Numbered from the stretch's first letter, positions 13,725 through 58,262 are shown. The stretch is 62,789 bases of DNA from a bacterium (GCA_021806925.1 JAKAPS010000006.1:1-62789); one strand, 5' to 3'. Numbers and translations: made by a program. The notes: a model not told the origin generated them from the sequence alone.

Positions 13725-14972
13725 TTATGTTAAAAGATACTTCCAAAGAGGTATAAAATGAATATTATTTCCACCTTCAGTAACATTTTTTTCTATTGAC
13801 TCTGTAACAACTATTGCTTCATGTGATTGAAAAGATTCTAGTACATTAAATAAATGAGTTGTATTAAAATCATCAATATTATCTATATATTTTGATTCTA
13901 TTAACTGAATTTCATTATTTTGTTTTATCAGAAAATCAATCTCTCTACCTTTGTTATAGAAAAAGTATAAAGAATCCTTATATTTTCTTTGAAGAAAATC
14001 AAAAAGCGTCCTTTCAGCTGCCTGCCCCCTATTCAATTTTCCGCATAAATTAAATAAAAGCCCATTGTCATTAATATAGTATTTTTTGGGGAAATATATT
14101 CTTTCATTTCGTGAAAAAGCGAATCTTTCTAATTCATACATATTAAATGTTTCTTTTAAGGCAGTGATGTACTCACGTACAGTATCTTTAGAGATACCCA
14201 AAATCTTTCCAAGTTTTATTAGACTTGTATGTGAACCTGATCTATCTGCAATAAGTTTTAATAAATCCCTAACAATATCTAAATTACGTATGTTATAGTA
14301 TTCAACAAAATCCTTATAAACGATACTATCAACTAAGTTTGAAAAATAGTCTGGCTCCTGTAATGATATATATTCTGGATATCCTCCTATTTTTAAATAT
14401 TCATCTAGAATATTTATATATCTATATCCTTCATATAATGGTATATCTATATTTTTAAATTCAAGAAATTCTTTAAAGGTAAGAGGAAACATATACATAT
14501 TTGTATGCCTTCCTGTTAAAAAGGCAGTTTTTACATGAATCTTAAATGAGGCTGAGCCAGTAACTATTATATGAACATTTTTTTCTATATCATATATGTT
14601 CTTTAATTCCTGCTCCCAGTTATCCTTGTACTGAACTTCATCTAAAAAGATATATATTTCTTGATCGATGGAAATATTATGAATTTTTCTGTATTCTTGA
14701 AGAATAGTATGTATAGACATATTATTAAATGCAAATGTATCAAGAAGCACATACAGAATATGTGAAACAGGAATCCCTGAATCAATTAATTTATTTATAT
14801 ACTGATATATTAGTGTAGTTTTCCCAACTCTGCGCCCTCCAAGTAGTAAGCATATATTTGAATATTCTAATTTCTTTGTAAGATCTTCTATGTAGCTCTT
14901 TCTTATAACACCAACATCAAGTTTCTTTTTACTAGTCCACCAAGGATTTTGTAATCTTAAAATTTCTTCCAC
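13725..14972 (-). CDS. AAA_14 + DUF4143 ATP-binding protein
   Basis: GGRRVGKT Walker A, IFLDEVQ Walker B, VTGSAS, GGYPE, PKKYYINDNGL, EIDF C-terminal nuclease-like motif; GTG start. Confidence 0.9.
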   Translation of the reverse strand: MEEILRLQNPWWTSKKKLDVGVIRKSYIEDLTKKLEYSNICLLLGGRRVGKTTLIYQYINKLIDSGIPVSHILYVLLDTFAFNNMSIHTILQEYRKIHNISIDQEIYIFLDEVQYKDNWEQELKNIYDIEKNVHIIVTGSASFKIHVKTAFLTGRHTNMYMFPLTFKEFLEFKNIDIPLYEGYRYINILDEYLKIGGYPEYISLQEPDYFSNLVDSIVYKDFVEYYNIRNLDIVRDLLKLIADRSGSHTSLIKLGKILGISKDTVREYITALKETFNMYELERFAFSRNERIYFPKKYYINDNGLLFNLCGKLNRGQAAERTLFDFLQRKYKDSLYFFYNKGREIDFLIKQNNEIQLIESKYIDNIDDFNTTHLFNVLESFQSHEAIVVTESIEKNVTEGGNNIHFIPLWKYLLT

Positions 14973-26107: not shown

Positions 26108-26524
26108 TTAAAGGTGATTGTTAGGATTCCCAGGAACACTTGATGGTTCATATTGATAGGTAGGAGTGAATGTACTTTGTAAATTGAACTTAAAATTACC
26201 ATTGGAAAAACTAAAACCAGATGAAAGCCCAGTAACACTGCTTAACAATTGTAGAATAATAAAAGAAAGGAACACCAAGCCAAAACCAACTACACTGTAG
26301 AGTAACCCCTTAGCTGTTTTATCTACATTTTCCTTTTTGCCTCCTGATGTTATGTACCTGAGTCCAGTTACTATAATCATTATGAAAAGAACAATAGCAG
26401 AGCCAATCAATAGTAATGATATCAGTGAGCCAGCCATGGAACCAAAACTCAACAATGTTGGTGGACAAACTGATCCTTGACAATTCATATAAATATTTTC
26501 TTTACTGATTTCAGTATACAACAA
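26108..26524 (-). CDS. VirB2/TrbC-like pilin (T4SS_pilin type)
   Basis: Two hydrophobic helices around GLRYITSGG...AK.L.YSVVG; start could be ATG 26488. Confidence 0.7.
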   Translation of the reverse strand: MLYTEISKENIYMNCQGSVCPPTLLSFGSMAGSLISLLLIGSAIVLFIMIIVTGLRYITSGGKKENVDKTAKGLLYSVVGFGLVFLSFIILQLLSSVTGLSSGFSFSNGNFKFNLQSTFTPTYQYEPSSVPGNPNNHL

Positions 26525-26550
26525 AACGGCGGATATATAAAATACCCGCC
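26523..26550 (-). terminator. Intrinsic terminator after pilin 26583..27068
   Basis: Minus strand GGCGGGTAT...ATATCCGCC followed by GTTTTG. Confidence 0.65.
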
Positions 26551-26582
26551 ATTAGTTAACAAATGCTTGTACAAATATTTGT

Positions 26583-27068
26583 TTACGAACCTGGATATGT
26601 TCCTCCAGATCCACTGTTTGAGCTACTAGTTGGGGATGTTCCATTTTGCAAACAACCAGAAACTCCAGAACTACCATTGATACCACATGGAAGTGTTATT
26701 GAGTTTGGTGAGCTTAAACCTAAAAGACTAAATATCAATTGAACTATTAAATATGAAAATATTATTATTAAAAGTCCAACTACTGCTGATATTATTTTTT
26801 CTTTTGCTTTCTTCTTTTTATCCTCTGAGTCCCCTGTCATCCATTGAAACCCTGCCATTATTATCATAACAAGAGCGACTAATCCAGACAAAACAAATAC
26901 AAAGTTAATAATATTTCCAATCAAATTATTCAAATACTGATTTGTATTAGATCCGAAATATTGAGCAAGAGATGGTGGGACAAATCCACTTGCGTGAACG
27001 ACACCAAAAACCATACTTCCTAAAAATATCACTAATGTAAATACTAAAATTTTTCTAAAATTTCGCAT
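26583..27068 (-). CDS. VirB2/TrbC-like pilin, candidate major subunit (start revised from GTG 27080 to ATG 27068)
   Basis: Signal peptide, AGFQWMTG...KKAKEKIISAVVGL; AAGGGGGTGA SD-like site at 27077-27086, 8 nt before the ATG. Confidence 0.78.
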   Translation of the reverse strand: MRNFRKILVFTLVIFLGSMVFGVVHASGFVPPSLAQYFGSNTNQYLNNLIGNIINFVFVLSGLVALVMIIMAGFQWMTGDSEDKKKKAKEKIISAVVGLLIIIFSYLIVQLIFSLLGLSSPNSITLPCGINGSSGVSGCLQNGTSPTSSSNSGSGGTYPGS

Positions 27069-27099
27069 TAAAATATTCACCCCCTTTTTTCATTTTTTT

Positions 27100-27780
27100 T
27101 TACAAACTTACTGCTGATGTAATTGTACTAAATAACTGAGTAAAACTAAAGTTCACAGGGAAACCAATCATTGAAAGGACAATTTCGACTATTGCAAATG
27201 AAAGAATAACCAATAATATACCAATAAATCCAGTAGTCAATGTTTTTCTTGCCTTCTCAACTTTTGACTTCTCACCTTCACTCATCATTATCATATATCC
27301 TCCCCATATGATTGTAACAAAGAAAAGAAGTCCTGCTATTGAGAATACAAACATTATTATTCCTTCTATAATACCGTCAACACTACTGTATGATGTTATA
27401 ACTGGACCGTTTGACGTGATACCTGAAAATATTCCACTTATTCCTAATATTGATGCTAGACCACTTTCAGAACTTGTCGGAGTTGGAAGGACAACTTCAG
27501 AACCAATTTTTTTAAATATTGAAGCTATTCCACTATCCGTAACTGTTGAAGTGACTGTTGAAGTAAGTGAATTTGATCCAACAATAGGTTGTGGTGATGA
27601 TCCATTAGAACACCCTCCGTTATCTACCTGTACATTAGGACATGGTGTTACAGCAAAAACATTTGCTCTGCTATTTAGTAAAAATAGACTATTTGATTGT
27701 GTAAAAAAAATTGATAAAAAGAATATAACCAATATCGTTTTTATATATTTAACATATTTCATATATTTTTTATTATTCAA
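27100..27780 (-). CDS. VirB2/TrbC-like pilin with S/T-rich N-terminal extension
   Basis: WGGYMIMMSEG...KARKTLTTGFIG. Confidence 0.75.
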   Translation of the reverse strand: MNNKKYMKYVKYIKTILVIFFLSIFFTQSNSLFLLNSRANVFAVTPCPNVQVDNGGCSNGSSPQPIVGSNSLTSTVTSTVTDSGIASIFKKIGSEVVLPTPTSSESGLASILGISGIFSGITSNGPVITSYSSVDGIIEGIIMFVFSIAGLLFFVTIIWGGYMIMMSEGEKSKVEKARKTLTTGFIGILLVILSFAIVEIVLSMIGFPVNFSFTQLFSTITSAVSL

Positions 27781-27791
27781 CCATAATTTTA

Positions 27792-28406
27792 CTAAAATAG
27801 TATACTATTTAATGATGTGAGACCTAACAGACCTATTATTATCTTTATAATGATAACTGAAAATGCAATCAATGCAATACCTACGATAGTGTAAGTTAAT
27901 ATATGTTGACCTTTCTTCACTTGTTCATCAGAGTCCCCTGCTGTTAAATATGTAAATCCTCCGTATACAATAGATCCAAAGGCAAACAACCCTATAAATG
28001 TATACAACATATCTTTAAATAAGTTGAAAACATCAGCGAATGTTGTTACTTTGGATTCCACATTACTTAATTTTCCAATATTTGAAAGACATTGTCCATC
28101 TGTAATAGCACCAGACTTAGGACAACATTCCGTTCCAGAAACAACTCCATCCCCAGCATTTGGAGTATACGAACAAACAGGCAACTGAAATGGAACCCCA
28201 CCTTCTACAGACAAACTTGAAGCTGGGTCCTGATAACACACTCCGTTATATATCAATCCATTAATTCCATAGTAATCACATGGATCATAATTTGATGAAT
28301 CAAAATTTATTGGCGTAACAGTTGGTGTAGTATTAGCTGCAAATACTGAACTAGAAAGTAAAGAGATATATATAATTCCTATTAACGTAAATATAAATAA
28401 CTTCAT
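27792..28406 (-). CDS. VirB2/TrbC-like pilin with Cys-rich N-terminal domain
   Basis: YGGFTYLTAGDSDEQVKKGQHILTYTIVG; six Cys upstream. Confidence 0.78.
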   Translation of the reverse strand: MKLFIFTLIGIIYISLLSSSVFAANTTPTVTPINFDSSNYDPCDYYGINGLIYNGVCYQDPASSLSVEGGVPFQLPVCSYTPNAGDGVVSGTECCPKSGAITDGQCLSNIGKLSNVESKVTTFADVFNLFKDMLYTFIGLFAFGSIVYGGFTYLTAGDSDEQVKKGQHILTYTIVGIALIAFSVIIIKIIIGLLGLTSLNSILF

Positions 28407-28777
28407 AACCCCAGGTTTATATTAAATAATATTTCAATTATTTTTATTATCATACCAGCAAATCCTATTATAACCGTACCTATGAGTGAATTCGTCAATA
28501 TTTTCTTTGCTGACTTTATTTTTTGATCAGAACCATAATCTAGCATATACATAATTCCAGAATATATTATCATAGAAACAAATATTAAACCTGTTAAAAA
28601 AAACACTATATCCAGTGTATGACTAAATAAAGTTTGAATATATGTTTGGAAATCTGTAGTCCCAAAAGGGCTTTGAACTGTTATATTATCAGCATATACA
28701 TATTGAGAATTTAGAAATTCTATAAGAAATACATAAAAAGATCCTATTGATATGTTTTTTAATAATTTTTTAATCAT
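28403..28777 (-). CDS. VirB2/TrbC-like pilin
   Basis: YSGIMYMLDYG...KSAKKILTNSLIG; ATGA overlap with the next gene. Confidence 0.75.
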   Translation of the reverse strand: MIKKLLKNISIGSFYVFLIEFLNSQYVYADNITVQSPFGTTDFQTYIQTLFSHTLDIVFFLTGLIFVSMIIYSGIMYMLDYGSDQKIKSAKKILTNSLIGTVIIGFAGMIIKIIEILFNINLGL

Positions 28778-28863
28778 ATTAAACTAGACGGCTCATTTGC
28801 TCTAAATAAATTACCCCTATAATCTCTAATAATTGTAACACTGAATATTATCAATAGCAATCA
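28774..28863 (-). pseudogene. Decayed duplicate of the 3' end of pilin 28962..30248
   Basis: Reads *LLLIIFSVTI...SSLI* against LLLIIFSVTILKIIGVSILGINVLSSLI*; LEIIGV appears in the shifted frame; identical 18-mer AATCATATTAAACTAGAC at 28772-28789 and 28960-28977. Confidence 0.75.
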
Positions 28864-28961
28864 AAAGACTAATATTACCTGTAATTTTTTATATAACTGT
28901 AAATACTTTATAGCAGGAATTATACTGATAATCTGTTTTAGTAAGTACAAATATATCCCAA

Positions 28962-30248
28962 TCATATTAAACTAGACAATACATTTATTCCAAGTATACT
29001 CACACCTATTATTTTTAATATTGTAACACTAAATATTATTAGCAATAATCCAAGTATTGCATTTGTTATCGTCTTCTGACCCTTCTTTATATCTTCATCA
29101 CTTTGACTTGTCATCAGTTTATATCCTCCTAACATCATCATTATTAATGCCACAAATCCTCCAACACCTACTGCTATCGTTAATATTATCTGTACCACTG
29201 CTCCGAAATTCGATGGAATACATCCGAATGCCGTATATGTATTCCCATTTGCTACTGTCTCAGTAGTATTTGTAGCAGGTATATATACTGGTTGTGTTGT
29301 ACATGTACATTCTGCTGCGTTTTGACTTGCATATTGTGGTGATTGACAGTTTAATACCCCTTTAGCTCCATTTCCTCCTGATGAAAAACCTGAGATGTTA
29401 CATATGCCATTAATCCATCTGTTATTTGTTGCTATTGGTTTTAAAGTATTATTACCATTAACCATTGTATGATTTATGCTACTCCCTGGATTTGTACTTT
29501 CACCTGTATAATTAAAACAATAGCTTAACGGTGGCATTGATGTATCTATATACGGAGGAATGGACGTATATGGTCCTGCTTGTCCATTGCCTGGTAACCC
29601 AGGATATCCAGTTTTTTCTGCACAATCAAAAGTGAATTCACTTGAGATATTGCCTGTGATATTTTCATTTTCAACTCTCAAAGCACCTGTATCACTACAA
29701 ATATTTGCGAATTCTGAATCACACACTATTACAAATGCTGTCTCACCTGAGTTATCCTCCACTTCATATTCCATACAAATTGGTTCATCGTTTGTACGGT
29801 CAACGTTACATTGAGATACATTTATACCAAAGAAATGCTGATCCGAACATGCACTCGTACCATCATATGGCTTGACAATAGAAGGTATATTATTTTGATA
29901 ATCCCATGCAATTTTAGAATCTGGAGACATCATTATATAATCTGAAGTCCACGAAGCTTCATCTAATATATCTGTTGAATATCCATAATTGAAAATCATA
30001 GCATCTCCTGCTCCGATAAGTCCACCAGCCCAACTTGTACCAAAATTATTTCCATTACTACTACCAGTTTTTACAGTAAAACTATCCACACAATTCATAG
30101 CACCTGAATTATCCTCTATAAATACATTACTCTCACATCCTGTATATAGTCCTCCACTTCCTTTTACTATACTCTTCTGACCTATTAATCCAAAATATAC
30201 TGGTATAAATAACAGGAATATAAATAATATCAAAAATGACTTTTTCAC
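28962..30248 (-). CDS. Large VirB2-like pilin with extended Cys-rich exported domain
   Basis: Signal peptide, many Cys, C-terminal LGGYKLMTSQ...KKGQKTITNAILGL. Confidence 0.75.
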   Translation of the reverse strand: MKKSFLILFIFLLFIPVYFGLIGQKSIVKGSGGLYTGCESNVFIEDNSGAMNCVDSFTVKTGSSNGNNFGTSWAGGLIGAGDAMIFNYGYSTDILDEASWTSDYIMMSPDSKIAWDYQNNIPSIVKPYDGTSACSDQHFFGINVSQCNVDRTNDEPICMEYEVEDNSGETAFVIVCDSEFANICSDTGALRVENENITGNISSEFTFDCAEKTGYPGLPGNGQAGPYTSIPPYIDTSMPPLSYCFNYTGESTNPGSSINHTMVNGNNTLKPIATNNRWINGICNISGFSSGGNGAKGVLNCQSPQYASQNAAECTCTTQPVYIPATNTTETVANGNTYTAFGCIPSNFGAVVQIILTIAVGVGGFVALIMMMLGGYKLMTSQSDEDIKKGQKTITNAILGLLLIIFSVTILKIIGVSILGINVLSSLI

Positions 30249-40255: not shown

Positions 40256-41281
40256 TTATTGTGCTGTTAATGAAATATTACTTGTATCAATCGCAGGGAA
40301 AAACACATCAAATATTTTTGCTCCGCTGTAATTTATAACTCCAGCATTTAAATGTATGTGAAATACTGGAAACACATATCCGTTATTTGCCATATAGTCA
40401 ATCTTTGTATATTCAATTGATATATTTGTGTTAATATTGATCGTTTTATCTGTTATACTGCTGTCTTGCGTAAATACACTCAAATAATTCAAATTTGAAT
40501 AAACTTGGTCTAGGGCATTTCCAAGTGGGACTAAATTTACATCTGTAACTTTAGTCAATCTATCCCCTATTGGAAAATTAGTGAAATTAACATAGCCAAG
40601 TACTCCATCAGGTCTTATATACATATCAATAAAGTCACTTGAAGTATCTGGATATATCGAATTATTACCATTTAAAAATGTAACTTCAAATTCATAATAA
40701 TTACCACTCTTTACAATACTTTTTAATATGTACCCACTATTGATTCCAAATATTGTATTTAAATAATTTTCAAAATTATTTTTCATTGTTACAACATCAA
40801 TAGTATTTTGCGTTACGCTCGCATAATGCTCAAGTGTATAGTGTCCATTAATTACAGATAATGCATATGAATCATCGCTGTTTTCCCATGTAGAAGCATT
40901 TACGCTACTCATTTTAAACTTTTGAATTAGCGTTTGAACGTTAAATGGATCATATGTATAAACAGAATATTGTGAGGAGGTTCCAGAAGCAAAAATATTT
41001 GCATTTTGAACATTCATTATGTTATTTACAGTAACATTTGATTTAAATGGCAACAAACTCATTACAATAGGGGTAGGTGTTAAAGGAATTGGTGTCACAT
41101 TAATAGTAAATACTGATGATCTATGAATAAAGTTAGTAGATATGTAGTTGGAAATATATGGGTAAGATAATATAGCAAAGCAGATAACTGATACAATAAT
41201 AAAGCCTACCTTATACTCCTTAGAGTTGGTTTTATCGTTGGAGTTATTATCATTATTCATATTTTTACTTATATTCCACAA
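40256..41281 (-). CDS. Single-pass membrane protein with exported beta-rich domain, function unknown
   Basis: One TM near the N-terminus; overlaps the giant ORF by 13 nt (or starts at ATG 41260). Confidence 0.6.
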   Translation of the reverse strand: MWNISKNMNNDNNSNDKTNSKEYKVGFIIVSVICFAILSYPYISNYISTNFIHRSSVFTINVTPIPLTPTPIVMSLLPFKSNVTVNNIMNVQNANIFASGTSSQYSVYTYDPFNVQTLIQKFKMSSVNASTWENSDDSYALSVINGHYTLEHYASVTQNTIDVVTMKNNFENYLNTIFGINSGYILKSIVKSGNYYEFEVTFLNGNNSIYPDTSSDFIDMYIRPDGVLGYVNFTNFPIGDRLTKVTDVNLVPLGNALDQVYSNLNYLSVFTQDSSITDKTININTNISIEYTKIDYMANNGYVFPVFHIHLNAGVINYSGAKIFDVFFPAIDTSNISLTAQ

Positions 41282-44200
41282 ATATTACTAAAGTAGTTAA
41301 AGAATGACATTACTGACTTTGACTCTAATATACCACAATCAGGATATTTTTGAGAATTTTGCCTACACACGTACTCTTGTGCAAGTGATTCTGCTTGATA
41401 ACTGTTTATGCTTGTAGTTAATGTTTTCTTTGTATAATTTGGACATAACGTGTTACTCCATTTGAATCCGTTGTTTATATATGCAAATACACCCGCAGCA
41501 GCTACAATTGAATCCTGAAGATTATTTAAGTCAAGATTTTTTGAAACTCCACTGCATCCTTCTATATCACTAATCACACTGGCATCATTAACTGCCTGAA
41601 CATCATTTGTGCCTTGTGAAGTTATTTGTGATGATTTACTACTGTCAGCGTAAAATATACCCATTGGGCCAACTCTAATTGATGAAGTTGAGTTGTTTAA
41701 TACCTCATCAACGCTTTGAAGATTACTTCCTATGTAGTCTGTTGTTGGCGACTGCTTGTATTGACTAACATAACTACAAACTCCGTATTGGTTTGAATTT
41801 CCAGTTGATATATATGTTCCGTTATATTCAAGTTCTGCTGCAAGAAGAGCAGGATCTACGTTAAAAGCATCCCCTACCTTCGATATATATTTATATAAAG
41901 AACTATTAGTATATGATGATCCAGTACTTGGATCTGTGCATGTACTTGGATTTGCAGTTGGATTAGTATCTATAACACCTCCACTACTTGAACATACATA
42001 TACCCCAGTTCTCAGATATTCATTGACTGGTAATGACGCACATCCGACATTAGTTGTGCTTGCACTTGTATTATTCGATGAAAAGCATTCATTTAATTGC
42101 GTGTATGAATTAAATGCTGGACAATATATATCTTGATTAGCTCCACTCCCTTTATAGTAGACCTTACTATATTTATATTCGTTATTTGAATTTAATGAAA
42201 CAGACATGTATGACATATATGTATTTAAGTGTGGTCCTGTCCATGTCTGATGTGATGCTGGAACTTTAAAGTTTTTTACATCACTTTGTAGATCAATTCT
42301 CCCTATTGCAGGACCAGATTTTGTAACAATAAGAGGACTTCCTGAATAATATGCATTTGCATTTATTATTCCTTCACCATCTGAATTAGCATCATTACCC
42401 ATATAACTGTTATATGCATCGAGAACTGCCTTACTTGGCTCAACATGATAATACGTTATATCAACATCACTAGTGAAAAATCCATTTTGGGATTTTTGAT
42501 TTTGATCTAATCCCAATGCTTCTGGTGAAAGCATTATTGTTATTTCACCTCCTGATGTTGCACTTGAATTAGCTCCATCAACTGCATATATTATATATCC
42601 ATTGAATGGTGAAAATACATCATTAGAATTTCCTGACACAGGAACTAAATCGGTTGATAATTGAGATACATGTTCAGGAAGAGACGATACTAAATTATTT
42701 GAATTACCTGCACTGCATGCCTCACCCGGATTACTTGCACTATACTGCACTCCGTTATATGATAATGCAAAAGGACAACCACCGCTTAAGGCACCGTACT
42801 GTACAGTACCAATCTGTTGAGGTGCTGGATTAGCTCCTAAAATTCCTCCAAGTCCAGCAAATGCAGCTACAGAAAATCCCATCATCAAAATTCCAAACAT
42901 AACACTCATTGGGTCATTCCGTCTTAGTAAGAAAAAGAAACTAATTAAGAATGATATTACTCCAGCTACAGCCAATATGTTAGCTATGAACCCCATTACA
43001 AGACCTCTTACCCAACCATAAAGTGGTGTAAATGAAAGACCAAAACCAATTGCTCCACCTATACCAGCTCCAAGCAATGTGCCTAACGGTCCAAAAAACA
43101 ACCCTATACCACCACCTATTATCGCCCCTCCTATTGTAAAGGCCATTATCCCAAACCCACCAGAAAATGCCCAAGATAAGGCATGTGATAAGAAATTATT
43201 CCACACCCACATAGCTATTTTTCCAGTCATATCCATTATGAAGCCGGAAATCGCCCCGTTAGTTGCTATATCAATCCCAAAATATACAGCCAAGATAGGA
43301 AGAACTGCTAATGGATCTGTGACTCCAACTGCTGTAAGAATAGCACCAAACATGTCAGCCACCACTCTTGCATACATTCCGATACCTATAACATTGAATC
43401 CACCAATTAGTATATTATATAAACCTGCACCTATTGTAGTTAAAGAGTTCGCATCTATACCATTAGTAAATAATTCATGAACTCCTTTTGATAATTCGCC
43501 AAATCCTTTCCCAATATCGTTAAATCCATGTATTAGTGGATAAATCTCTCCATATGGATGATTTGCCGATAAATATGCTCCAAAGTAAAAATTCATTACA
43601 TTAGTTGATGCTCTAACTACCGAAGACACACCATTTTCCATTATGTATTTATATGTACCAGATGCTCTATCAAATGCATCTCTGATTACTTGAGGTAAAT
43701 ATTTATTTATTGCTACTCCTCCTAAGCGTACAGCAATGTATGCAGCTGCAACACCAGCAGCTAACTGATGATTTATTCCCCAAAGTACAGCTAGTATTGA
43801 TGCAGCGTTAACGCCAGTGTCTAATAAGTCACCAACTGACATAGGGAAGTCCATAAATCGATAAGATGAAACTTTTGATAATGCAACACCGAAACTATTA
43901 TCAGGATTCCTTAAAGCGTCGTGAATAGCGTTAAATAAACGATGATCAGGTGTTAATCTTCTTAATTCCGAAGTAGCTAACTGCTCATTTGTCATTGTTG
44001 GATCTTCACGTGATACTTCCTTTAACCATCTTTCAATACTATTTTGAAGACCTAATTTCATGCGGGAGTACAATTCCAGGAATATTCGTTCGCTAGTACT
44101 TAAATTATTTATGTGATTTACAATATCGGCGTAATTAGTTAATAGCCCTCTTTCCTCATCAGATAGTGTCCTAGCCAAATCAATACCTCCATTAACATGC

Positions 44201-47200
44201 TCCTGAACCATTTCATGAAATATTCTGACTAGATCAGGATTATCAGCATGTATAAGAGTATATAGCGTACTAGTTTGTGTTAAACCAGATAGTGTTATAT
44301 CCCCATTTTTAATACTCTCTACAAACGAAAGAAATCTACTTTGTGAAGCAGAATCCAATGAAATATATCTCAAACCATTAACATTTGTAGTAGGAGAATT
44401 AAATATATCACTATTTAAATGTCGTAAATTCTCAATAGCATCGGACCTAATAAAATATCTAGGATAATCATTAAATTCAAAAGCTCTGGTAATATAATCC
44501 GTATGATCGAGTGCCACAGATAATGCACGAACCGAAAGTACTTTTGCAACTGGAGCTGAAACATATTCTATAACACGTTTATTAAAATTCGACCATGCTC
44601 TATAAAATATGCTATCGTTTGGCCTAATCTGACCTTCTAAAAGTGTCTTAACTGAACCAGACGCATTTAATGATCCATCTCTTCCAATAGTATAAAAAAT
44701 ATCTTTAGGGTAATTCCTTAATGAATAAAATATTGTTCTAGTAAAAAAAACACTTAGTGCAAGTGTTGAGTTTTGTGTTATTAAATAAGTAGGAATTGCC
44801 CATAGACCGCCATTAATACCAGCTTTCAAAACCTCCCATGATGTATGGGTAGCAATTCCTACTCCCCTCAAAGCCGTAGCCGCAGCTTTAGCAGCAACAA
44901 ATAAGTGCCTTCCGTCTGTCCAACCATCAAAGATTCCTCTAATATATCCCTCTCTTCCTACCATTGATAACAAACCATCACCTTTAGTTATTGCATCACT
45001 AAAATTTTTTATATCAACAAGTCTTTGATTATACCAATATCTTAAACCGTCTAGGTTTGATAAATATTCTCGTGATGATTCTAGAATTTTGGTTCCAAAT
45101 TCTGTAAATGTTGCCCCCAAAGAGGATAAAACAACAGATGCTACAAAAGAAAATAGCGGTGAAATACTATCAACAAGAGATAAATCTCCTCTTCTTCTTC
45201 TATTTTCTCTATCTAACGTCTTTGATCCGAATAAATAAACAAACCTATTAAACCAAGATAGTTGTGCAAGATTAAGTACATTATTATTAAGGAGATCGTT
45301 ATTTGGAATAGCACGAACAGTGAATAATCTCCTAATCCTTGAGAGTATACTGTTACCATATACTGGAGCATTTTCATGAATACCAGCTCTCAATCCTAAT
45401 AGTCTTGATAATGCTCTAAATCCAATCTCGCCAGGTCTGTATCTATCATCACTAAATCTCCATACTAGATGACTTCCCTCAGTACTACGGACATATAAAC
45501 CAGCAGCTCCTAAAAATGATTCCCAGCTTATTCTCTTTATTAATCGACTTACTGCCTCACCCTTTGGAACAAAATAATGATTATATAATCCCCATGCAGA
45601 GTTATGTGCATTATATGGTGCAAATAAACCAGCGTTCCTAGCCTTACTTCTTCCCATTATATTTAACGGGTCAATTCCGTACCTCAACATTCTTAAAGCA
45701 TTTACATTATCTGGTATTAAGTTCTGAGTAATACCTATTATGCTTCCTGCAACAGATGCAATAAGAAATAAGCCTGGCATTGGAATACCAGCTCCTATAA
45801 CGCCATTTAATGCAACACCATATAATGCAGTACGAACTAAATTATCAGTTGAAAATGGATCTTTAGCAATACCATCATTAATCCTTTTTAAAATGTTCTC
45901 AGTCTGTTCAGCCTGCATACCTGTAGCAATCAAGTTCTGCCAACGCCCTGATCTAGATAATTCAACTTGTAATGCTTCCTCTAATCTTACATAAAAATCA
46001 TTTAAGTCTTGGTAATTATTTGGATTAAAAGCATGAGATACATGCCTTATGTTTTCATATATTGGATTTCCGTTAGGATCTCTGGCAACAACAGGAATGT
46101 TCAATAATACATACTCGCCTCTTCTACTTCCTCTAAGGATATTATTGGCAACCCTAACAGCGTTAGAATGACTCAAGTATATTTCTAATTGCCTGGTTAT
46201 TGAATCTCTAATTAACAATCGCTCAGAACTACTATTAGACCATTCTGTAAATGCTTGAAATCTTGATAGAATCCTGCTTCTTACAGGAGGTATTGTATTA
46301 CCTACAGAATGCATCCTATCCAATTCCTGTATTCTGCGATCTAATGAAAAAGATGATGATCTGTCGTATTGTACAACAAGCTTCATTATATTGTTTAGAT
46401 AACCTTGCTTAGCAACCTGAAGTTCATGAAGTCTTTCTTTTACTCTTATAGTTTCACTCTGTAAATTTCTCCTTATAATAATACTATCTTGAGCTGTTCC
46501 ATTTATACTTTTAATACATACGTCTATGTTAGTACCTCCACCTTGAAATGGGCTTGAATGTTTTTGAACTTTTCCTGCAACAACTACCTTTATTGCATTT
46601 GCAATTTGACTATCATCTAATCCACCTTTATTATTTAAACTTGCTGCAACTGCATTAATATCAATATTATTATTAAAACCAATTTTTGAAACTCTCTTTG
46701 TAATCTCCTCAGCCATTTCTCTTGAAACTCTAGGATCATAAGTCAATCTATTTAAAGCATTGGCTGTAGCTTCTTGTGTAAGGTAGGCAGATATTTCTAT
46801 TTTTTGCTGTTTTCTTGAAATACTAATTCTATTCATTCTATTTTCACCCTCAAACCCAGCGTCACCACCAAAAGGATGCACAACACCACGCATACCCAAA
46901 TAAAGTAGAAAATTAGATGGCATTTGTTGCGGATCACCTGGAACTTGTCCAACAGGTCTGCCAGTTGTATAATGTATTGCAGCATTTAAATCTTGGTCAT
47001 GTGTAAGATCAATTGATGCAACTGCTTTAAGGGCATCTTCCCTTCCTACCAATTCAGCTCTAATCGATCTGTTGTTATTCAGCTTTGTAAACAAATCATC
47101 TAGGTTTGCTGAATGGGTTCTATTCCACGCATCTGGATCTGGCGCGTTCGCTGGACATGTTGCCGCCAATTCATTATTATAACTCAATTCAAGAGCTTGA

Positions 47201-48513
47201 ATATTGTTACCTATATTAGCGATCTCATTCCCTATTCCAGATGATCTGGATGCAATATCATTACTGTATTTTTCAACAAACTTATTAATTTCTTTAACTT
47301 TTTCTATAACGACAACTCCGCTAGGATCAATTTGTTGATTGATTCTATCTCTTATTGACCTTATTGGAACTTTACCAAATTGATTACTTACCTTTACATT
47401 TACTAGATTAGTAACCATCGTACCTATATAGTCACCAGGAGTAATCGCCACCTTAGCCCCACTGGCTAAAGCATTTGCAATATCCTCTGTAGGAATTGGA
47501 TGACCCGCACTATCTACATTTAGATTATCCCGTACTGGCACAGCTCTGTATACTGGATGTATGTCATCCACTGTTTGCTTCTGTCCGTTTAAGTCAATAT
47601 ATTCATAACCTTCGGGAACTCTCTCTAACCTGACTAAGCTACGAGTTTCATTATCATGTAGCAATACGTTAGGCGTTATGTTTGTAGAGAAGAGCTGTTC
47701 ACCTGAACTTCCAACTCCCACATTATTAATATTGTTATTACTATTAGACCCATTTCCACTTCCAGTACTATTTTGAGTAGATGAATTTGATTGTGTAGGT
47801 AGAATTCCCTGAAGTATATTTGCTAATGGAGTTAGGAGTTCTTTTGGAAGGTCTCGTAGCGAAGAAGTGTTTTCATCCTTTTTATTAGGATCTTCTGCGA
47901 TATTTATTCCAGCATAATTAAATATTCCTCCAGAATCAGGACCTCTTCCAGTGTTGTTAGGCTGATAACCTCTTGCTTGATCCCCAGGAGTTAGTTGTGA
48001 ACCTGTATAATTTCCTAGTACTGGAGGTTCAAATTGTTTATCTACACCCAATTCAGATATGACCGAAGCAAAAACAGTTGCAACCATTTCATTAAACTGT
48101 TGCTTACCAACTCTAGTTGCATTTTCGCCATTTATCCAATTTGATATTTCAGGAACTTTACACAGTTCATTAAATAAGTTATTCGATGCTTCTTGTACTA
48201 TTTTTCTTTGTGCAACGCTACCGCTTAAAGCTATATAGTTATTTTGAATATAGTCCTGAACCTCATCTGGTGGAATTCCTCTATTTACTGCTTCAGTAAT
48301 AAGTTCCTCTTTTGTGGGACTATACCTGTTTAATTGATAACTTAAGCTACTAGAATTAAGTGCTCCTCCCAAATTAGAGGCTGATTCGGTAAATATCTGT
48401 CTTATATGAGTTGAAGGATCAGAATCAACATGCGGATATTCTGCCAATCCAATTGGAGATGAACTTTTCTTATCAAGTACCCCCCAAATCAAAGAGATTA
48501 TTCCACCAGGCAT
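41269..48513 (-). CDS. 2414-aa giant membrane protein with Gly-zipper TM region, M23-like domain and C-terminal lytic transglycosylase-like domain
   Basis: Uninterrupted ORF; GGAIIGGGIGLFFGPLGTLLGAGIGGAIG; SPFNGYIIYA...GGEITI...ITYYHV...TGPHLN; FNVDPALLAAELE...VGPMGI...NLQDSIVAAA. Confidence 0.7.
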   Translation of the reverse strand: MPGGIISLIWGVLDKKSSSPIGLAEYPHVDSDPSTHIRQIFTESASNLGGALNSSSLSYQLNRYSPTKEELITEAVNRGIPPDEVQDYIQNNYIALSGSVAQRKIVQEASNNLFNELCKVPEISNWINGENATRVGKQQFNEMVATVFASVISELGVDKQFEPPVLGNYTGSQLTPGDQARGYQPNNTGRGPDSGGIFNYAGINIAEDPNKKDENTSSLRDLPKELLTPLANILQGILPTQSNSSTQNSTGSGNGSNSNNNINNVGVGSSGEQLFSTNITPNVLLHDNETRSLVRLERVPEGYEYIDLNGQKQTVDDIHPVYRAVPVRDNLNVDSAGHPIPTEDIANALASGAKVAITPGDYIGTMVTNLVNVKVSNQFGKVPIRSIRDRINQQIDPSGVVVIEKVKEINKFVEKYSNDIASRSSGIGNEIANIGNNIQALELSYNNELAATCPANAPDPDAWNRTHSANLDDLFTKLNNNRSIRAELVGREDALKAVASIDLTHDQDLNAAIHYTTGRPVGQVPGDPQQMPSNFLLYLGMRGVVHPFGGDAGFEGENRMNRISISRKQQKIEISAYLTQEATANALNRLTYDPRVSREMAEEITKRVSKIGFNNNIDINAVAASLNNKGGLDDSQIANAIKVVVAGKVQKHSSPFQGGGTNIDVCIKSINGTAQDSIIIRRNLQSETIRVKERLHELQVAKQGYLNNIMKLVVQYDRSSSFSLDRRIQELDRMHSVGNTIPPVRSRILSRFQAFTEWSNSSSERLLIRDSITRQLEIYLSHSNAVRVANNILRGSRRGEYVLLNIPVVARDPNGNPIYENIRHVSHAFNPNNYQDLNDFYVRLEEALQVELSRSGRWQNLIATGMQAEQTENILKRINDGIAKDPFSTDNLVRTALYGVALNGVIGAGIPMPGLFLIASVAGSIIGITQNLIPDNVNALRMLRYGIDPLNIMGRSKARNAGLFAPYNAHNSAWGLYNHYFVPKGEAVSRLIKRISWESFLGAAGLYVRSTEGSHLVWRFSDDRYRPGEIGFRALSRLLGLRAGIHENAPVYGNSILSRIRRLFTVRAIPNNDLLNNNVLNLAQLSWFNRFVYLFGSKTLDRENRRRRGDLSLVDSISPLFSFVASVVLSSLGATFTEFGTKILESSREYLSNLDGLRYWYNQRLVDIKNFSDAITKGDGLLSMVGREGYIRGIFDGWTDGRHLFVAAKAAATALRGVGIATHTSWEVLKAGINGGLWAIPTYLITQNSTLALSVFFTRTIFYSLRNYPKDIFYTIGRDGSLNASGSVKTLLEGQIRPNDSIFYRAWSNFNKRVIEYVSAPVAKVLSVRALSVALDHTDYITRAFEFNDYPRYFIRSDAIENLRHLNSDIFNSPTTNVNGLRYISLDSASQSRFLSFVESIKNGDITLSGLTQTSTLYTLIHADNPDLVRIFHEMVQEHVNGGIDLARTLSDEERGLLTNYADIVNHINNLSTSERIFLELYSRMKLGLQNSIERWLKEVSREDPTMTNEQLATSELRRLTPDHRLFNAIHDALRNPDNSFGVALSKVSSYRFMDFPMSVGDLLDTGVNAASILAVLWGINHQLAAGVAAAYIAVRLGGVAINKYLPQVIRDAFDRASGTYKYIMENGVSSVVRASTNVMNFYFGAYLSANHPYGEIYPLIHGFNDIGKGFGELSKGVHELFTNGIDANSLTTIGAGLYNILIGGFNVIGIGMYARVVADMFGAILTAVGVTDPLAVLPILAVYFGIDIATNGAISGFIMDMTGKIAMWVWNNFLSHALSWAFSGGFGIMAFTIGGAIIGGGIGLFFGPLGTLLGAGIGGAIGFGLSFTPLYGWVRGLVMGFIANILAVAGVISFLISFFFLLRRNDPMSVMFGILMMGFSVAAFAGLGGILGANPAPQQIGTVQYGALSGGCPFALSYNGVQYSASNPGEACSAGNSNNLVSSLPEHVSQLSTDLVPVSGNSNDVFSPFNGYIIYAVDGANSSATSGGEITIMLSPEALGLDQNQKSQNGFFTSDVDITYYHVEPSKAVLDAYNSYMGNDANSDGEGIINANAYYSGSPLIVTKSGPAIGRIDLQSDVKNFKVPASHQTWTGPHLNTYMSYMSVSLNSNNEYKYSKVYYKGSGANQDIYCPAFNSYTQLNECFSSNNTSASTTNVGCASLPVNEYLRTGVYVCSSSGGVIDTNPTANPSTCTDPSTGSSYTNSSLYKYISKVGDAFNVDPALLAAELEYNGTYISTGNSNQYGVCSYVSQYKQSPTTDYIGSNLQSVDEVLNNSTSSIRVGPMGIFYADSSKSSQITSQGTNDVQAVNDASVISDIEGCSGVSKNLDLNNLQDSIVAAAGVFAYINNGFKWSNTLCPNYTKKTLTTSINSYQAESLAQEYVCRQNSQKYPDCGILESKSVMSFFNYFSNICGI

Positions 48514-48522
48514 AAATAAATA

Positions 48523-50298
48523 TTAAACGACATTCCCAATAATCCCCCCAACAAGAGGAATCTTTCCTGCAAGATTCATAGCTTTCTTTCCAAATTCTCC
48601 AGAAGATTCATTAGCACCTCTGAATTGGAATTCTGTCTTGAAGAACTCATCAAGATCTTTGGCAAGACCAGGAATAATTGTAATTATACCAAGTGCTACA
48701 AAATTCCATATATATTGTGGGTCAATTGAATCAACAAATATCAATGGACCATTTGAAAAGTTAACAATACCAACATTACTTGATATAAACCATGGACCTG
48801 AATTGTTTGTAAGACCGAATTCATTTCCGGCACCTCCTGACGTTCCTGAACAACTTGTGTATCCACTAACACCATTTGCTGATGAAGGACATTCAGTTCC
48901 AAATGCAAATATTGCAGCAATGAATATTAGAAGAAACACAGCAGGAAATATCAATGCAGAAGAAAGGAGAGAATTTAAATAATTACCAATAGCCTTACCT
49001 CCACTTAATACATAATTTACAAGCATAAGAGGTCCAATAGCTGCTACCAATACAATCTTTATAAACGCTGTTAAAACAACAATAAATATTCTTACTGCCC
49101 AATACAATGCAAGGACATTTAATATGAATCCTATTGCAATTGTAACAGCACCAGCAAGTGCAAATGTATTATTAAGCAACAATCCATCAAGTATTCCTAT
49201 ATTTGTAGGTTGATCAATTAACCCAGCATACCCTGCACCATTTTGTTCTGCTGGTGGAAACCAACTTTGTACATTAACAATGGGAGCTAATAATCTAAAG
49301 ATATTAAAATCTCCTGCATTTCCGCCTATAACACCTTTTTGAGATTGAGTAGTATATTCATTAAATCCACAATACTTCATACCTGTTGTACTCTGAAGCC
49401 CGCTTGTATATGAACCTCCTGGAACAAGAGAATTAACTGAACAGGCAACAGGGTATTCCCCTGCAGCATAATATGTAGGTTGAACAAATTCTGGAGCAAG
49501 AACTGAGATTATAACATTGGTTCCAAGATTTGCTATATCAATCATAAGTCCTGCTATTGCATAGCTGAATGTGATTAACAATAGTGCAATTATTATCTTA
49601 GGTATTGAGCTCATAATTGTTACTTCTTCCTGCCCAAGTTTTGCACCAAATAACAAAAGGAAACCAATAAAAACAACAAGTATTGCAACAACAATATACG
49701 CTATATTTCGTGAGATATCCCAAATTGGCAATACCGGCGACAGTGTGTTATACCCAGTACCAGTTGTTCCAGCTGCATATACACTCGTTTTGTTTTGTTC
49801 AAATCTACTTTGAACATAATATGTTGCAAGTGCAGAGAAGCTAACAGGATTATTTGAATATATATAACCTTCAGTATTTGCAAGGAATCCAAGAAGTCCA
49901 GTTGAACCGCTTGATGTTGAGGTTGCCTGTGTCCCTTGTGCAATTTGATTAACTAAACTTGCAAACTGAGCAAATTCATCGTTTATTAAATTAGGTGAAA
50001 TACTAGATTGATATCCAAGATTATTTTGCGCGGTCGTATTATCTAAAGAATATGTATTGTAATCTTGCGCAGATACAATACCTGACAATGATAAGCCAAC
50101 TATTGATAGGAACCCTATTATCGAAAACAGAGCTAGCTTATTCCTCCAGTTCAAATTTAAAAATAGGATAAAAAAAGATTTAATTCTATGTAGGGTTGCT
50201 AATAAAATAACCCAAATAGCAAAAAACGCAATTTGTAACTTAAGTAAAATATATTTGAAGAATAGATTCATATTCTCATTTATTATATTACTTTTCAA
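48523..50298 (-). CDS. VirB6/TrbL-like polytopic membrane protein (CPR type)
   Basis: WDISRNIAYIVV...IPKIIIALLLITFSYAIAGLMIDI; several C-terminal TM helices; start TTG 50298 (TTGA overlap with trmD stop) or ATG 50271. Confidence 0.6.
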   Translation of the reverse strand: MKSNIINENMNLFFKYILLKLQIAFFAIWVILLATLHRIKSFFILFLNLNWRNKLALFSIIGFLSIVGLSLSGIVSAQDYNTYSLDNTTAQNNLGYQSSISPNLINDEFAQFASLVNQIAQGTQATSTSSGSTGLLGFLANTEGYIYSNNPVSFSALATYYVQSRFEQNKTSVYAAGTTGTGYNTLSPVLPIWDISRNIAYIVVAILVVFIGFLLLFGAKLGQEEVTIMSSIPKIIIALLLITFSYAIAGLMIDIANLGTNVIISVLAPEFVQPTYYAAGEYPVACSVNSLVPGGSYTSGLQSTTGMKYCGFNEYTTQSQKGVIGGNAGDFNIFRLLAPIVNVQSWFPPAEQNGAGYAGLIDQPTNIGILDGLLLNNTFALAGAVTIAIGFILNVLALYWAVRIFIVVLTAFIKIVLVAAIGPLMLVNYVLSGGKAIGNYLNSLLSSALIFPAVFLLIFIAAIFAFGTECPSSANGVSGYTSCSGTSGGAGNEFGLTNNSGPWFISSNVGIVNFSNGPLIFVDSIDPQYIWNFVALGIITIIPGLAKDLDEFFKTEFQFRGANESSGEFGKKAMNLAGKIPLVGGIIGNVV

Positions 50299-57107: not shown

Positions 57108-58262
57108 ATGTATAGAGAAATAAAGGACAAACTTGTAAAATTAATAGATAACGAAGACAAAGTTCTTGTAGTTACAGGGGCTAGACAAGTTGGTAAAACA
57201 ACTCTTTTAAAATCAGTTCTAGGAGATAATGCCGTATACTTTGATATTGATGATAAAACATATAAGGATTTTTTTGATAGCCTTTCACTCGTAAAATACT
57301 CTTCATATTTGACTCCGATAAAATCATCTGGAAAGAACATTATTGTGATTGATGAAGCACAAAGATTAAAAGATCCAGGTCTTTGTGCAAAAATAATTCA
57401 TGACAATAGGTTAATAAAAGTAATACTAACTGGTTCTTCATCTTTGGATATAACACAAAGAACTACAGAAAGCCTTGCAGGTAGAAAAATTAACATTACT
57501 GTTTATCCATTAACTCTATATGAATATATAAAGCAGGAAGAATATATTGTTCCATTTGCTCTTAATGAAATTAATTTAAAAATTATTGAAGAAATTTTGA
57601 ATGAGAAAATTAGAATCGGCACATATCCAGCTATAAGCCGCAATTTTCCAGAAGTATACTTAAAAGATCTAGCAGAATCAATAATCTTAAAAGATATTCT
57701 ATATCTCGGATTAATTAGGAAATCAGAAAACCTTATAGATTTATTAAAATATTTTGCAAACACAATCGGTGTAGCTCAAGGAATATTGCCAATATCAAAA
57801 GGTGTTCAGCTATCAAGAAAAACAGTTGAGTATTATATAAACATACTAGAATCTTCATATATAATATATGCAATAAATGGATTTAAAGATTTAAGAAACG
57901 ATGAAGTATCAAAAATATCTAAATACTATTTTTTTGATACTGGACTAAGAAACTATTTAATTAATGATTTTAGACAACTAAGTAATAGACAAGATAAAAG
58001 CTCCCTTTTTGAAAACTTCATAATTACTGAAATATTAAAAAGAAATGAATATAACTTCTCAAGATATGAAACATTCTTCTGGAAAACTACGCAAGGAGCC
58101 AACATTGATATTGTGCTTAGAAGAGATAATAAAATATTATTATATAATTTTGACAAGAAGCAAAGTTCCATTGATGCCTTTATTTCAACATACAAAGATA
58201 AGTACGAGATATCAGTAATAGATAATATCCTTGAATTTATACTAAGGGAAGAATACTTATGA
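57108..58262 (+). CDS. AAA_14 + DUF4143 ATP-binding protein
   Basis: GARQVGKTT, IVIDEAQ, LTGSSS, GTYP, KYYFFDTGLRN, LFENF, FWKT. Confidence 0.9.
   Translation: MYREIKDKLVKLIDNEDKVLVVTGARQVGKTTLLKSVLGDNAVYFDIDDKTYKDFFDSLSLVKYSSYLTPIKSSGKNIIVIDEAQRLKDPGLCAKIIHDNRLIKVILTGSSSLDITQRTTESLAGRKINITVYPLTLYEYIKQEEYIVPFALNEINLKIIEEILNEKIRIGTYPAISRNFPEVYLKDLAESIILKDILYLGLIRKSENLIDLLKYFANTIGVAQGILPISKGVQLSRKTVEYYINILESSYIIYAINGFKDLRNDEVSKISKYYFFDTGLRNYLINDFRQLSNRQDKSSLFENFIITEILKRNEYNFSRYETFFWKTTQGANIDIVLRRDNKILLYNFDKKQSSIDAFISTYKDKYEISVIDNILEFILREEYL

Follow-up and report, generated by a model that had tools for sequence, protein, structure and literature searches.

The window considered here, i.e., the whole stretch of 62,789 nucleotides (nt) that was analysed (GCA_021806925.1 JAKAPS010000006.1:1-62789, one strand), belongs to the 0.93 Mb genome (G000; about 31% G + C) of an ultrasmall member of the Patescibacteria, or candidate phyla radiation (CPR), of mine-drainage origin. 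On its minus strand it harbours a trio of genes that code for a 591-amino-acid (aa) protein (P0002), a giant protein of 2414 aa (P0001) and a 341-aa protein (P0003). There is a good chance that this trio constitutes the envelope part of the already known chromosomal type IV secretion system (T4SS) of the Patescibacteria, which is of the Gram-positive type (derived from MPF-FATA, a class of mating-pair formation systems), in an expanded and fused variant. This reading is carried by the membership of P0002 in a VirB6-like family found inside T4SS gene clusters of distant genomes, and by an M23-type domain that the giant shares with membrane-anchored proteins encoded next to VirB6-like genes across its class. 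The three genes are:

48523-50298, minus strand: P0002, 591 aa, TTG start, VirB6/TrbL-like polytopic membrane protein
41269-48513, minus strand: P0001 (the giant), 2414 aa, ATG start, putative T4SS-associated, membrane-anchored M23-type component
40256-41281, minus strand: P0003, 341 aa, TTG start, predicted bitopic protein

An earlier interpretation made from the DNA sequence alone (the sequence-only reading) had described three tightly packed open reading frames (ORFs), and the ORF map confirms this arrangement, with a gap of 9 nt between the genes for P0002 and P0001 and an overlap of 13 nt between those for P0001 and P0003. The longest ORF for P0002 begins with a TTG codon, its overlap with the stop of trmD being 4 nt; the copy of this protein in the database (P0004, 582 aa) begins at an ATG nine codons further in, and either codon may be the true start.

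The VirB6-like membrane protein family

Scans of Pfam, NCBIfam and PHROG gave no match for any of the three proteins. P0002 likewise did not match the PF04610 profile, the Pfam TrbL model finds nothing in the entire genome at E ≤ 1, and a sequence search of the PDB left both P0002 and P0001 without a match. P0002 has about seven hydrophobic helices according to hydropathy and thus lies within the range of the polytopic VirB6/TrbL proteins with their at least five transmembrane (TM) helices. By profile search, members of its family were detected in 82 of 151 genomes of Patescibacteria and in 18 of the 19 genomes of its own class, with a single strong VirB6-like gene in each genome examined. In distant genomes (G032, G003, G059 and others) the family member lies between pilin arrays and VirB4, the order of the cluster being pilin array, cysteine-rich secreted protein, VirB6-like gene, VirB3-like gene, VirB4 and a membrane-anchored hydrolase. 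Moreover, matches of the Pfam TrbL model fall on ORFs of the P0002 family in seven genomes (G051, G045, G100, G137, G104, G018 and G017), the one in G051 (27.3 bits) being the sole match above the gathering cut-off.

An AlphaFold2 (AF2) model of P0002 based on 30 sequences has a mean predicted local distance difference test (pLDDT) value of 60, with 80-95 in the helical TM core. When this model was compared with 350,542 PDB chains, the top four matches were chains of the stalk or inner-membrane complex of the R388 T4SS, and 7o3v_F from the VirB5-VirB6 stalk was among the top matches; these matches are weak, with E-values of 0.13-2.9 and TM-scores of 0.29-0.40 on the target. Taken together, family distribution, T4SS synteny, the coincidence with TrbL matches and the weak fold matches bear out the VirB6-like character that the sequence-only reading had assigned to this protein, and P0002 is, as far as can be judged from such family-level comparisons, a very divergent VirB6/TrbL homologue. 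A published survey calls VirB6 'scarce' in some classes of Patescibacteria (PMC12102498), and this reported scarcity is probably due to divergence of the kind seen here.

The surroundings of the VirB6-like genes in distant genomes hold further recurrent T4SS neighbours. In many of these genomes a protein of 850-1420 aa with a signal peptide, 30-42 cysteines and no Pfam match is encoded directly upstream of the VirB6-like gene, and a convergent gene for a protein of 610-1140 aa lacking TM helices lies on its other side (L032 2659-5202, L038 711-4979, L046 10262-14260).

The giant protein, its M23-type domain and its homologues

From its N- to its C-terminus the giant can be divided into the following regions:

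45817-48513, minus strand: N-terminal part of about 900 aa, soluble, no TM helix or signal peptide, presumably cytoplasmic
43807-45816, minus strand: first membrane region (residues ~900-1262) and soluble loop of about 300 aa (1263-1569), from hydropathy
42847-43806, minus strand: Gly/Ala-rich polytopic TM block (residues 1570-1889, about seven helices), from hydropathy and composition
42199-42696, minus strand: M23 (LytM)-type domain with insertions (H1948...D1955, H2023, H2095-L-N2097)
41272-41916, minus strand: Cys-rich C-terminal extension (residues 2200-2414; alignments A3, A4 and A7), possibly lysozyme/SLT-like, unproven

With respect to the M23-type domain, P0001 itself does not match PF01551 even at E ≤ 10. 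Its orthologue P0083 matches this profile with E = 2.3e-5 (24.9 bits at a cut-off of 28.7; profile positions 10-92 of 96), and a profile made from alignment A5 (ten homologues, P0001 being the first row) matches about 27 solved M23 peptidases at E < 0.05. The best of these are 5kqb (5.7e-7) and 6jmx (9.7e-6), and LytM, lysostaphin, ShyA, SpoIIQ, LasA and zoocin A are also among them; six of the ten members match PF01551 singly, at best with 5.8e-7. On the basis of the A5 profile and the P0083 match, the domain that had been called M23-like from the sequence is M23-type and would be located on the outer side of the membrane, and the giant can be said to carry a genuinely M23-related domain at the level of sequence profiles. 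Its motifs are PEH...STD (residues 1946-1955), YYHVEP (2021-2026) and GPHLN (2093-2097).

The residues of the H...D, H and HxH motifs are conserved among the ten homologues, nine of which keep the full HxH, so that the giant's family as a whole is probably catalytic. In P0001 alone, Asn2097 (codon AAT) takes the place of the second histidine of HxH, which serves as a zinc ligand in LytM-type enzymes; because of this replacement (HxN), catalysis by the P0001 copy is doubtful. The spacing of its first motif is H-x6-D and not HxxxD. A sequencing error as the cause of HxN was ruled out, as the AAT codon agrees with an independent Logan contig (41x, from a mine-drainage metagenome) that is identical over nt 41900-42700. 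Another contig, from one run (X3) of the mine-drainage study concerned, is only about 94% identical and shows 18 differences over 307 nt of the M23-like region (window 42365-42671), which suggests that a strain or sister population whose giant has diverged occurs alongside. An AF2 model of the C-terminal 503 aa of the giant, computed on an alignment of three sequences, was unusable (pLDDT 28.9).

Across the class, the gene following the VirB6-like one codes for a membrane-anchored M23 homologue of 803-1709 aa, and these smaller proteins have one or two TM helices in the arrangement that is classic for anchored hydrolases of the PrgK type. In profile-profile comparisons (hhalign), the C-terminus of the giant is related to the proteins of about 900 aa whose genes come immediately after the VirB6-like one in family f2 (94%), to a 931-aa protein of G169 in family f83 (96.4%), to a 1709-aa protein of G162 in family f84 (87.7% in the M23 region, 94.7% in the TM block) and also to an 803-aa protein in family f89. 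No relation was found by hhalign between the giant and the TM-less proteins of about 900 aa beside VirB6-like genes, or between the giant and the 225/230/280-aa proteins of family f82 and the 387/379-aa proteins of family f87. The linkage to VirB6-like genes to which the sequence-only reading had tied its proposal is thus present in other genomes, either for the giant or for a homologue of it.

Immediately behind virB4, distant Patescibacteria encode a protein of 904-993 aa in which a long N-terminal region and TM helices precede a C-terminal M23 domain, which is bona fide M23 in two genomes, G003 and G059 (E = 6e-19 and 6e-18), while in one distant genome a CHAP domain is found at this position instead. 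The C-terminus of the f2 proteins is related to that of these post-virB4 proteins (hhalign, 94.8%). In the class studied here, the hydrolase gene stands beside the VirB6-like gene and is followed by a gene for an N-terminally anchored protein of about 280-390 aa; judging from this pattern, the hydrolase gene has moved from beside virB4 to beside the VirB6-like gene.

The sister family f82 is informative with respect to the origin of the giant. Here, the slot from trmD to the L25 gene, where the trio is located in G000, contains individual genes for the VirB6-like protein, a 225-aa protein, a polytopic protein of 1458-1571 aa, a 282-aa anchored protein, a Cys-rich protein of 760-790 aa bearing signals of NlpC/P60 or M23, and a protein of 241 aa that contains the motif 'AIWGQESSF' typical of soluble lytic transglycosylases (SLT). 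The polytopic protein is related to residues 1698-1893 of the giant (hhalign, 95.3%), and no relation was found by hhalign between the Cys-rich protein and the M23-like profile. Since polytopic protein, hydrolase and SLT-motif protein are encoded separately in this slot, the giant looks like a fusion of the three.

As to its membrane regions, hydropathy places segments of the giant at residues 900-933 (nt ~45715-45816), 1111-1135 (nt ~45109-45183) and 1584-1602 and in the block 1701-1889. The hydrophobic stretches listed in the sequence-only reading are therefore borne out near 45720-45840 and 45100-45180 and for the TM block, while the one at 44740-44890 (residues ~1208-1258) turned out to be only moderately hydrophobic; this stretch is nonetheless the one island in the N-terminal 1600 aa for which an alignment with the orthologue P0083 is still possible. 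The block 1570-1890 consists of 16% Gly and 12% Ala. Of the glycine zipper that had been suggested for it, what stands is a modest enrichment of small-xxx-small-xxx-small motifs (18 as compared with 11.3 +/- 3.3 after shuffling, with 36 of 1000 shuffles reaching 18); strict GxxxG motifs are not enriched (10 vs 8.2 in shuffles), and there are no internal repeats in the giant. Altogether about ten hydrophobic segments are distributed across 1000 residues, with loops following the positive-inside rule. The C-terminal 520 aa contain 13 cysteines and few charges. An outward orientation of the C-terminal domain is argued for by the pair RR (1864-1865) in the last short loop before the final helix together with the many invariant cysteines that come after it.

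The C-terminal extension, in turn, was found only in the three family orthologues, among which the motifs PALLAAELEY and GPxGxF are invariant and cysteines are conserved; the motifs quoted in the sequence-only reading are indeed present in the giant, with PALLAAELEYN at residues 2221-2231 and VGPMGIF at 2281-2287. This tail has no Pfam match at E ≤ 10 and none in PDB profile searches. An hhalign comparison with 16 SLT domains of Patescibacteria gave a weak score of 24.5 (P = 0.003, probability 10.7%), which exceeds those of all 100 column shuffles (mean 10.8, maximum 20.9); the first helix and the Glu region are aligned, with the invariant E2227/E2229 out of register with the glutamate of the ES motif.

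Just two orthologues of the giant itself were found, namely P0083 (2342 aa, from a JGI metagenome, on a contig where the gene order is the same) and a protein of G151 (GCA_025450075.1), a metagenome-assembled genome in which the gene is split over two contigs into an N-terminal part of 1483 aa and a C-terminal part of 1105 aa (together at least 2588 aa, with the same synteny). Word-indexed searches with the C-terminal region and with the full length of the giant returned only the giant itself, an exhaustive HMMER search of 1.84 billion representatives with its C-terminal 520 aa gave only P0083 and a spurious match to a Cys-repeat protein of 438 aa (P0084), two metagenome scans contained no further relatives, and PDB sequence searches with P0001 and with alignments A1, A3, A6 and A7 yielded nothing relevant.

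Between the orthologues, the C-terminal stretch of about 850 aa is 28-34% identical. The N-terminal stretch of about 1550 aa shows no detectable similarity among them except for an island common to P0083 and G151 at residues 1226-1285 (GGLW...FYxxGxDGSL), and its first 900 aa have no relative in Pfam, NCBIfam, PHROG or the PDB. As this N-terminus cannot be aligned while the flanking VirB6-like and TrmD proteins of G000 and G151 are 41% and 46% identical, the proteins seem to be collinear orthologues with an extraordinarily fast-evolving, presumably cytoplasmic part.

P0003 has an N-terminal TM helix at residues 25-43 by hydropathy, with a domain of about 300 aa that would face outward. It is 24% identical over 283 aa (E = 8e-15) to the product of the gene at the same place in G151, and in families f2, f83, f84 and f89, too, the gene for the large protein is followed by one for a protein of about 280-390 aa with an N-terminal anchor. 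An hhalign comparison with the 282-aa proteins of f82 gave a weak result (32%, P = 5e-4), one with the f2 proteins of about 327 aa no relation, and a profile of six homologues found no solved relative in the PDB. Because its position is the one held by PrgL/VirB8-like proteins, P0003 might act as a partner of the VirB8/PrgL type.

A probable dispersed secretion machine and competing explanations

The trio is flanked on one side by trmD, the gene for an AI-2E transporter, a type IV pilin-like gene and dnaK-grpE-hrcA, and on the other by the L25 gene and leuS. Two families share this location between trmD and the L25 gene, and three keep the housekeeping neighbours; the G + C content resembles that of the surroundings, and promoter and terminator scans did not exceed chance level. 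Two further T4SS features lie in the same window:

26108-30248, minus strand: array of VirB2-type T4SS pilin genes (PF18895 T4SS_pilin and NF045849 on the ORF 28962-30248)
15368-17803, minus strand: VirD4/TraD-like coupling-type ATPase, 811 aa (PF10412, PF12696, PF01935, TIGR03743)

Pilin ORFs from the VirB6-like clusters of other genomes match those of this array, and no relaxase was seen in the window. The T4SS core of the genome is found on a contig separate from that of the trio (C22:54119-61842; locus L102 8120-15843) and comprises genes for a protein of 524 aa (PrgI/VirB3 domain at the N-terminus, beta-sandwich-like region at the C-terminus), another of 234 aa, VirB4 (664 aa), a 376-aa protein without assignment and a second VirB4-like/AAA_10 ATPase of 415 aa; in this VirB4 neighbourhood there is no adjacent wall hydrolase.

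Three side observations concern the same genome. Between the pilin array and the VirD4-like gene, a further wall-remodelling protein of 771 aa is encoded (window 20364-22679, minus strand), with an N-terminal coiled-coil/SMC-like region and a SpoIID/LytB domain (TIGR02669, 3.5e-36). Two genes for AAA_14/DUF4143 ATPases (415 and 384 aa) are located at window 13725-14972 and 57108-58262. On contig C10 (45713-53086), two adjacent giant ORFs of 1169 and 1286 aa have sub-threshold Peptidase_M23 signals (E = 4e-3 and 1.3e-4); a 1294-aa ORF in G151 resembles them and has two weak M23 matches, and the three may represent a second family of large M23-bearing envelope proteins.

If the trio belongs to one machine with VirB4, P0002 would be the VirB6-like polytopic subunit that serves as channel or platform in the membrane, and the giant would fill the role of VirB1/PrgK with a cytoplasmic N-terminal region, membrane helices including the Gly-rich bundle, and a disulfide-rich ectodomain. 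Held in the membrane by its helices, it would present its M23-type and possibly lysozyme-like domains to the peptidoglycan, either that of its own cell or that of a host, and by opening or gripping it locally, be it as an enzyme or as a regulator, would allow the channel and the pilus to be assembled. Its cytoplasmic part would contact the ATPases, and P0003 would act as the bitopic VirB8/PrgL-like partner.

Several points weigh against this assignment. VirB4 is on another contig than the trio; P0002 and P0001 taken alone have no match in Pfam, NCBIfam or the PDB, so that their assignments amount to transitive homology at the level of families; the E-values of 0.13-2.9 in the fold search with P0002 are individually not significant; and composition can raise hhalign scores where Gly-rich TM blocks are compared. 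Moreover, no function can be assigned to about 1550 aa, or 64%, of the giant, its M23 copy with HxN may be non-catalytic and unable to cut peptidoglycan, and for the unproven SLT/lysozyme-like fold of its tail the chances are about evenly balanced.

An alternative hypothesis assumes an autonomous envelope machine, i.e., that the trio consists of paralogous T4SS offshoots and works without VirB4, for instance to remodel the wall of its own cell, in division, or as a pore of its own for contact with the host. Its distance from VirB4 and its location among trmD, L25 and leuS in a slot conserved over two families would agree with this, as would the HxN motif, which recalls the degenerate LytM regulators EnvC, NlpD and SpoIIQ, the last being among the PDB matches. 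However, such a machine is unlikely: with one strong VirB6-like gene in each genome examined no other VirB6 would be left for the VirB4 machine, the same VirB6-like family occurs together with an M23 protein inside the pilin-VirB4 cluster of distant genomes, no other hydrolase is present beside VirB4 in G000, and a dispersed arrangement of T4SS genes is documented in Patescibacteria (PMC12102498).

A more far-reaching conjecture regards the giant as an all-in-one fusion that replaces several envelope subunits of the T4SS, with its N-terminal ~1550 aa as a lineage-specific adaptor or cargo under host-driven antagonistic evolution, or with the whole protein threaded outward and its Gly-rich helices forming a conduit in the host membrane; we consider this improbable.

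Likewise improbable is the proposal of the sequence-only reading itself, a tape-measure-like conduit or effector with which an episymbiont would breach a host wall and insert into the membrane of the host. Spelled out, the giant would be extruded, cut the wall by means of its terminal hydrolase domains and lodge its Gly-rich helices in the host membrane. This proposal could draw on the lack of a signal peptide, on a Gly-rich hydrophobic block that precedes domains of the wall-hydrolase type, as is the case in some tape-measure proteins of phages, on the probably episymbiotic nature of the organism, and on the extremely fast divergence of the N-terminal 1550 aa, as expected of a host-facing or antagonistically evolving protein. 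The fast-evolving part, however, is the presumably cytoplasmic region and not the ectodomain. Furthermore, the giant has no similarity to tape-measure proteins or other PHROG entries, no phage genes accompany it, its position between trmD and L25 is conserved, its about ten hydrophobic segments with positive-inside loops give it the look of a resident polytopic protein, and its smaller homologues with their one or two TM helices have the PrgK-type layout. Finally, a prophage or mobile-element remnant, consisting of a tape-measure gene and its flanks and unrelated to secretion, might be suggested by the large size and by the C-terminal M23-type and possibly lysozyme-like domains, but is effectively refuted by synteny, since the housekeeping neighbours are conserved in three families and homologues follow VirB6-like genes throughout the class, and is at odds with the absence of phage-family matches and with a G + C content like that of the surroundings.

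For the assignment to the envelope half of the Patescibacteria T4SS, the consequences are methodological as well as biological. Standard profiles miss this half, i.e., the VirB6-like protein, the anchored M23 protein and the bitopic partner, in the class studied here, and searches at the family level recover it, so that the locus may explain why surveys find VirB6 and VirB1 'scarce' in some classes. The hydrolase component is evolutionarily plastic in its position (beside virB4 or virB6), in its length (from about 800 to 2414 aa), by apparent fusion with polytopic and possibly lysozyme-like modules, and by the loss of a zinc ligand. The Patescibacteria represent a major part of bacterial diversity, and theirs is the first T4SS shown to be essential for growth on a host; the proteins described here are concrete candidates for studying how such episymbionts breach or grip a cell wall.

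Comparison with known systems

Phage tape-measure proteins with terminal M23 or lysozyme domains resemble the giant in their large size and in having Gly-rich hydrophobic segments followed by wall-hydrolase-type domains, but the giant differs from them by the lack of any sequence relationship, by the lack of a phage context and by its conserved chromosomal synteny with a VirB6-like gene. With the degenerate LytM regulators EnvC, NlpD and SpoIIQ, P0001 has in common an M23-type domain with an incomplete set of zinc-binding residues, and SpoIIQ, which is part of a trans-envelope channel, is among the PDB matches of the A5 profile; unlike in these regulators, degeneration is limited to the G000 copy among the homologues of the giant.

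Within the VirB6/TrbL family (TrwI of R388, PDB 7o3v/8rtd; PrgH of pCF10; 'extended VirB6' proteins), P0002 agrees with the known members in being polytopic and T4SS-linked and in its family-level TrbL signal, and its best, if weak, fold matches are entries of R388 that contain VirB6. It differs in that it has no TrbL match itself and in a large, poorly predicted and presumably extracellular insert (residues 269-342 and 468-524). The giant differs from the 'extended VirB6' proteins, as no VirB6 signal was found in P0001.

PrgK of the Enterococcus plasmid pCF10 (VirB1-type, 'DELTA class'; PDB 8S0U) and TraG of pIP501 likewise belong to T4SSs of the Gram-positive type. PrgK consists of an intracellular domain, a TM segment, a LytM domain, a muramidase domain and a CHAP domain, its LytM domain being regulatory and not an active cutter (PMC12857230), which fits the HxN of the giant. 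As predicted from its sequence, the giant has the same kind of layout as PrgK and TraG, with an intracellular N-terminal domain, a membrane anchor and an extracellular LytM/M23 domain followed by a lysozyme-type domain (the latter unproven in the giant), and is encoded with T4SS genes. It differs from PrgK in being nearly three times as long, in having about ten hydrophobic segments including a Gly-rich bundle as opposed to one anchor, in its orphan N-terminal region of about 900 aa, in lacking CHAP and in being encoded beside virB6 and not virB4; PDB searches revealed no sequence similarity between the giant and PrgK.

The closest counterpart in terms of the organism is the T4SS of Southlakia epibionticum (SEML1_0006-0019; Wang et al. 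2023, PMC10633639), which is essential in that member of the same phylum, together with the systems surveyed by Quinonero-Coronel et al. 2025 (PMC12102498). The set of components is the same, comprising a VirB2-type pilin array, VirB3/PrgI, VirB4, VirB6 and a VirD4-like ATPase; peptidase and lysozyme homologues are associated with these systems, and M23 domains have been reported on VirB1 homologues. The trio is therefore not the undescribed module that the sequence-only reading had seen in it, nor does it represent a new kind of system, since T4SSs of Patescibacteria with VirB6, pilin arrays and M23-bearing hydrolases of the VirB1 type have been published (PMC10633639, PMC12102498, PMC12857230). 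What sets G000 apart from these systems is the distribution of its T4SS over at least three loci, the hydrolase gene beside virB6, and VirB6-like and M23-like sequences too divergent for standard profiles. The new features of the giant are its size of 2414 aa, reached by apparent fusion, together with the Gly-rich polytopic block, the family-specific tail, the degeneration of HxH to HxN and the extreme divergence of the N-terminal two thirds.

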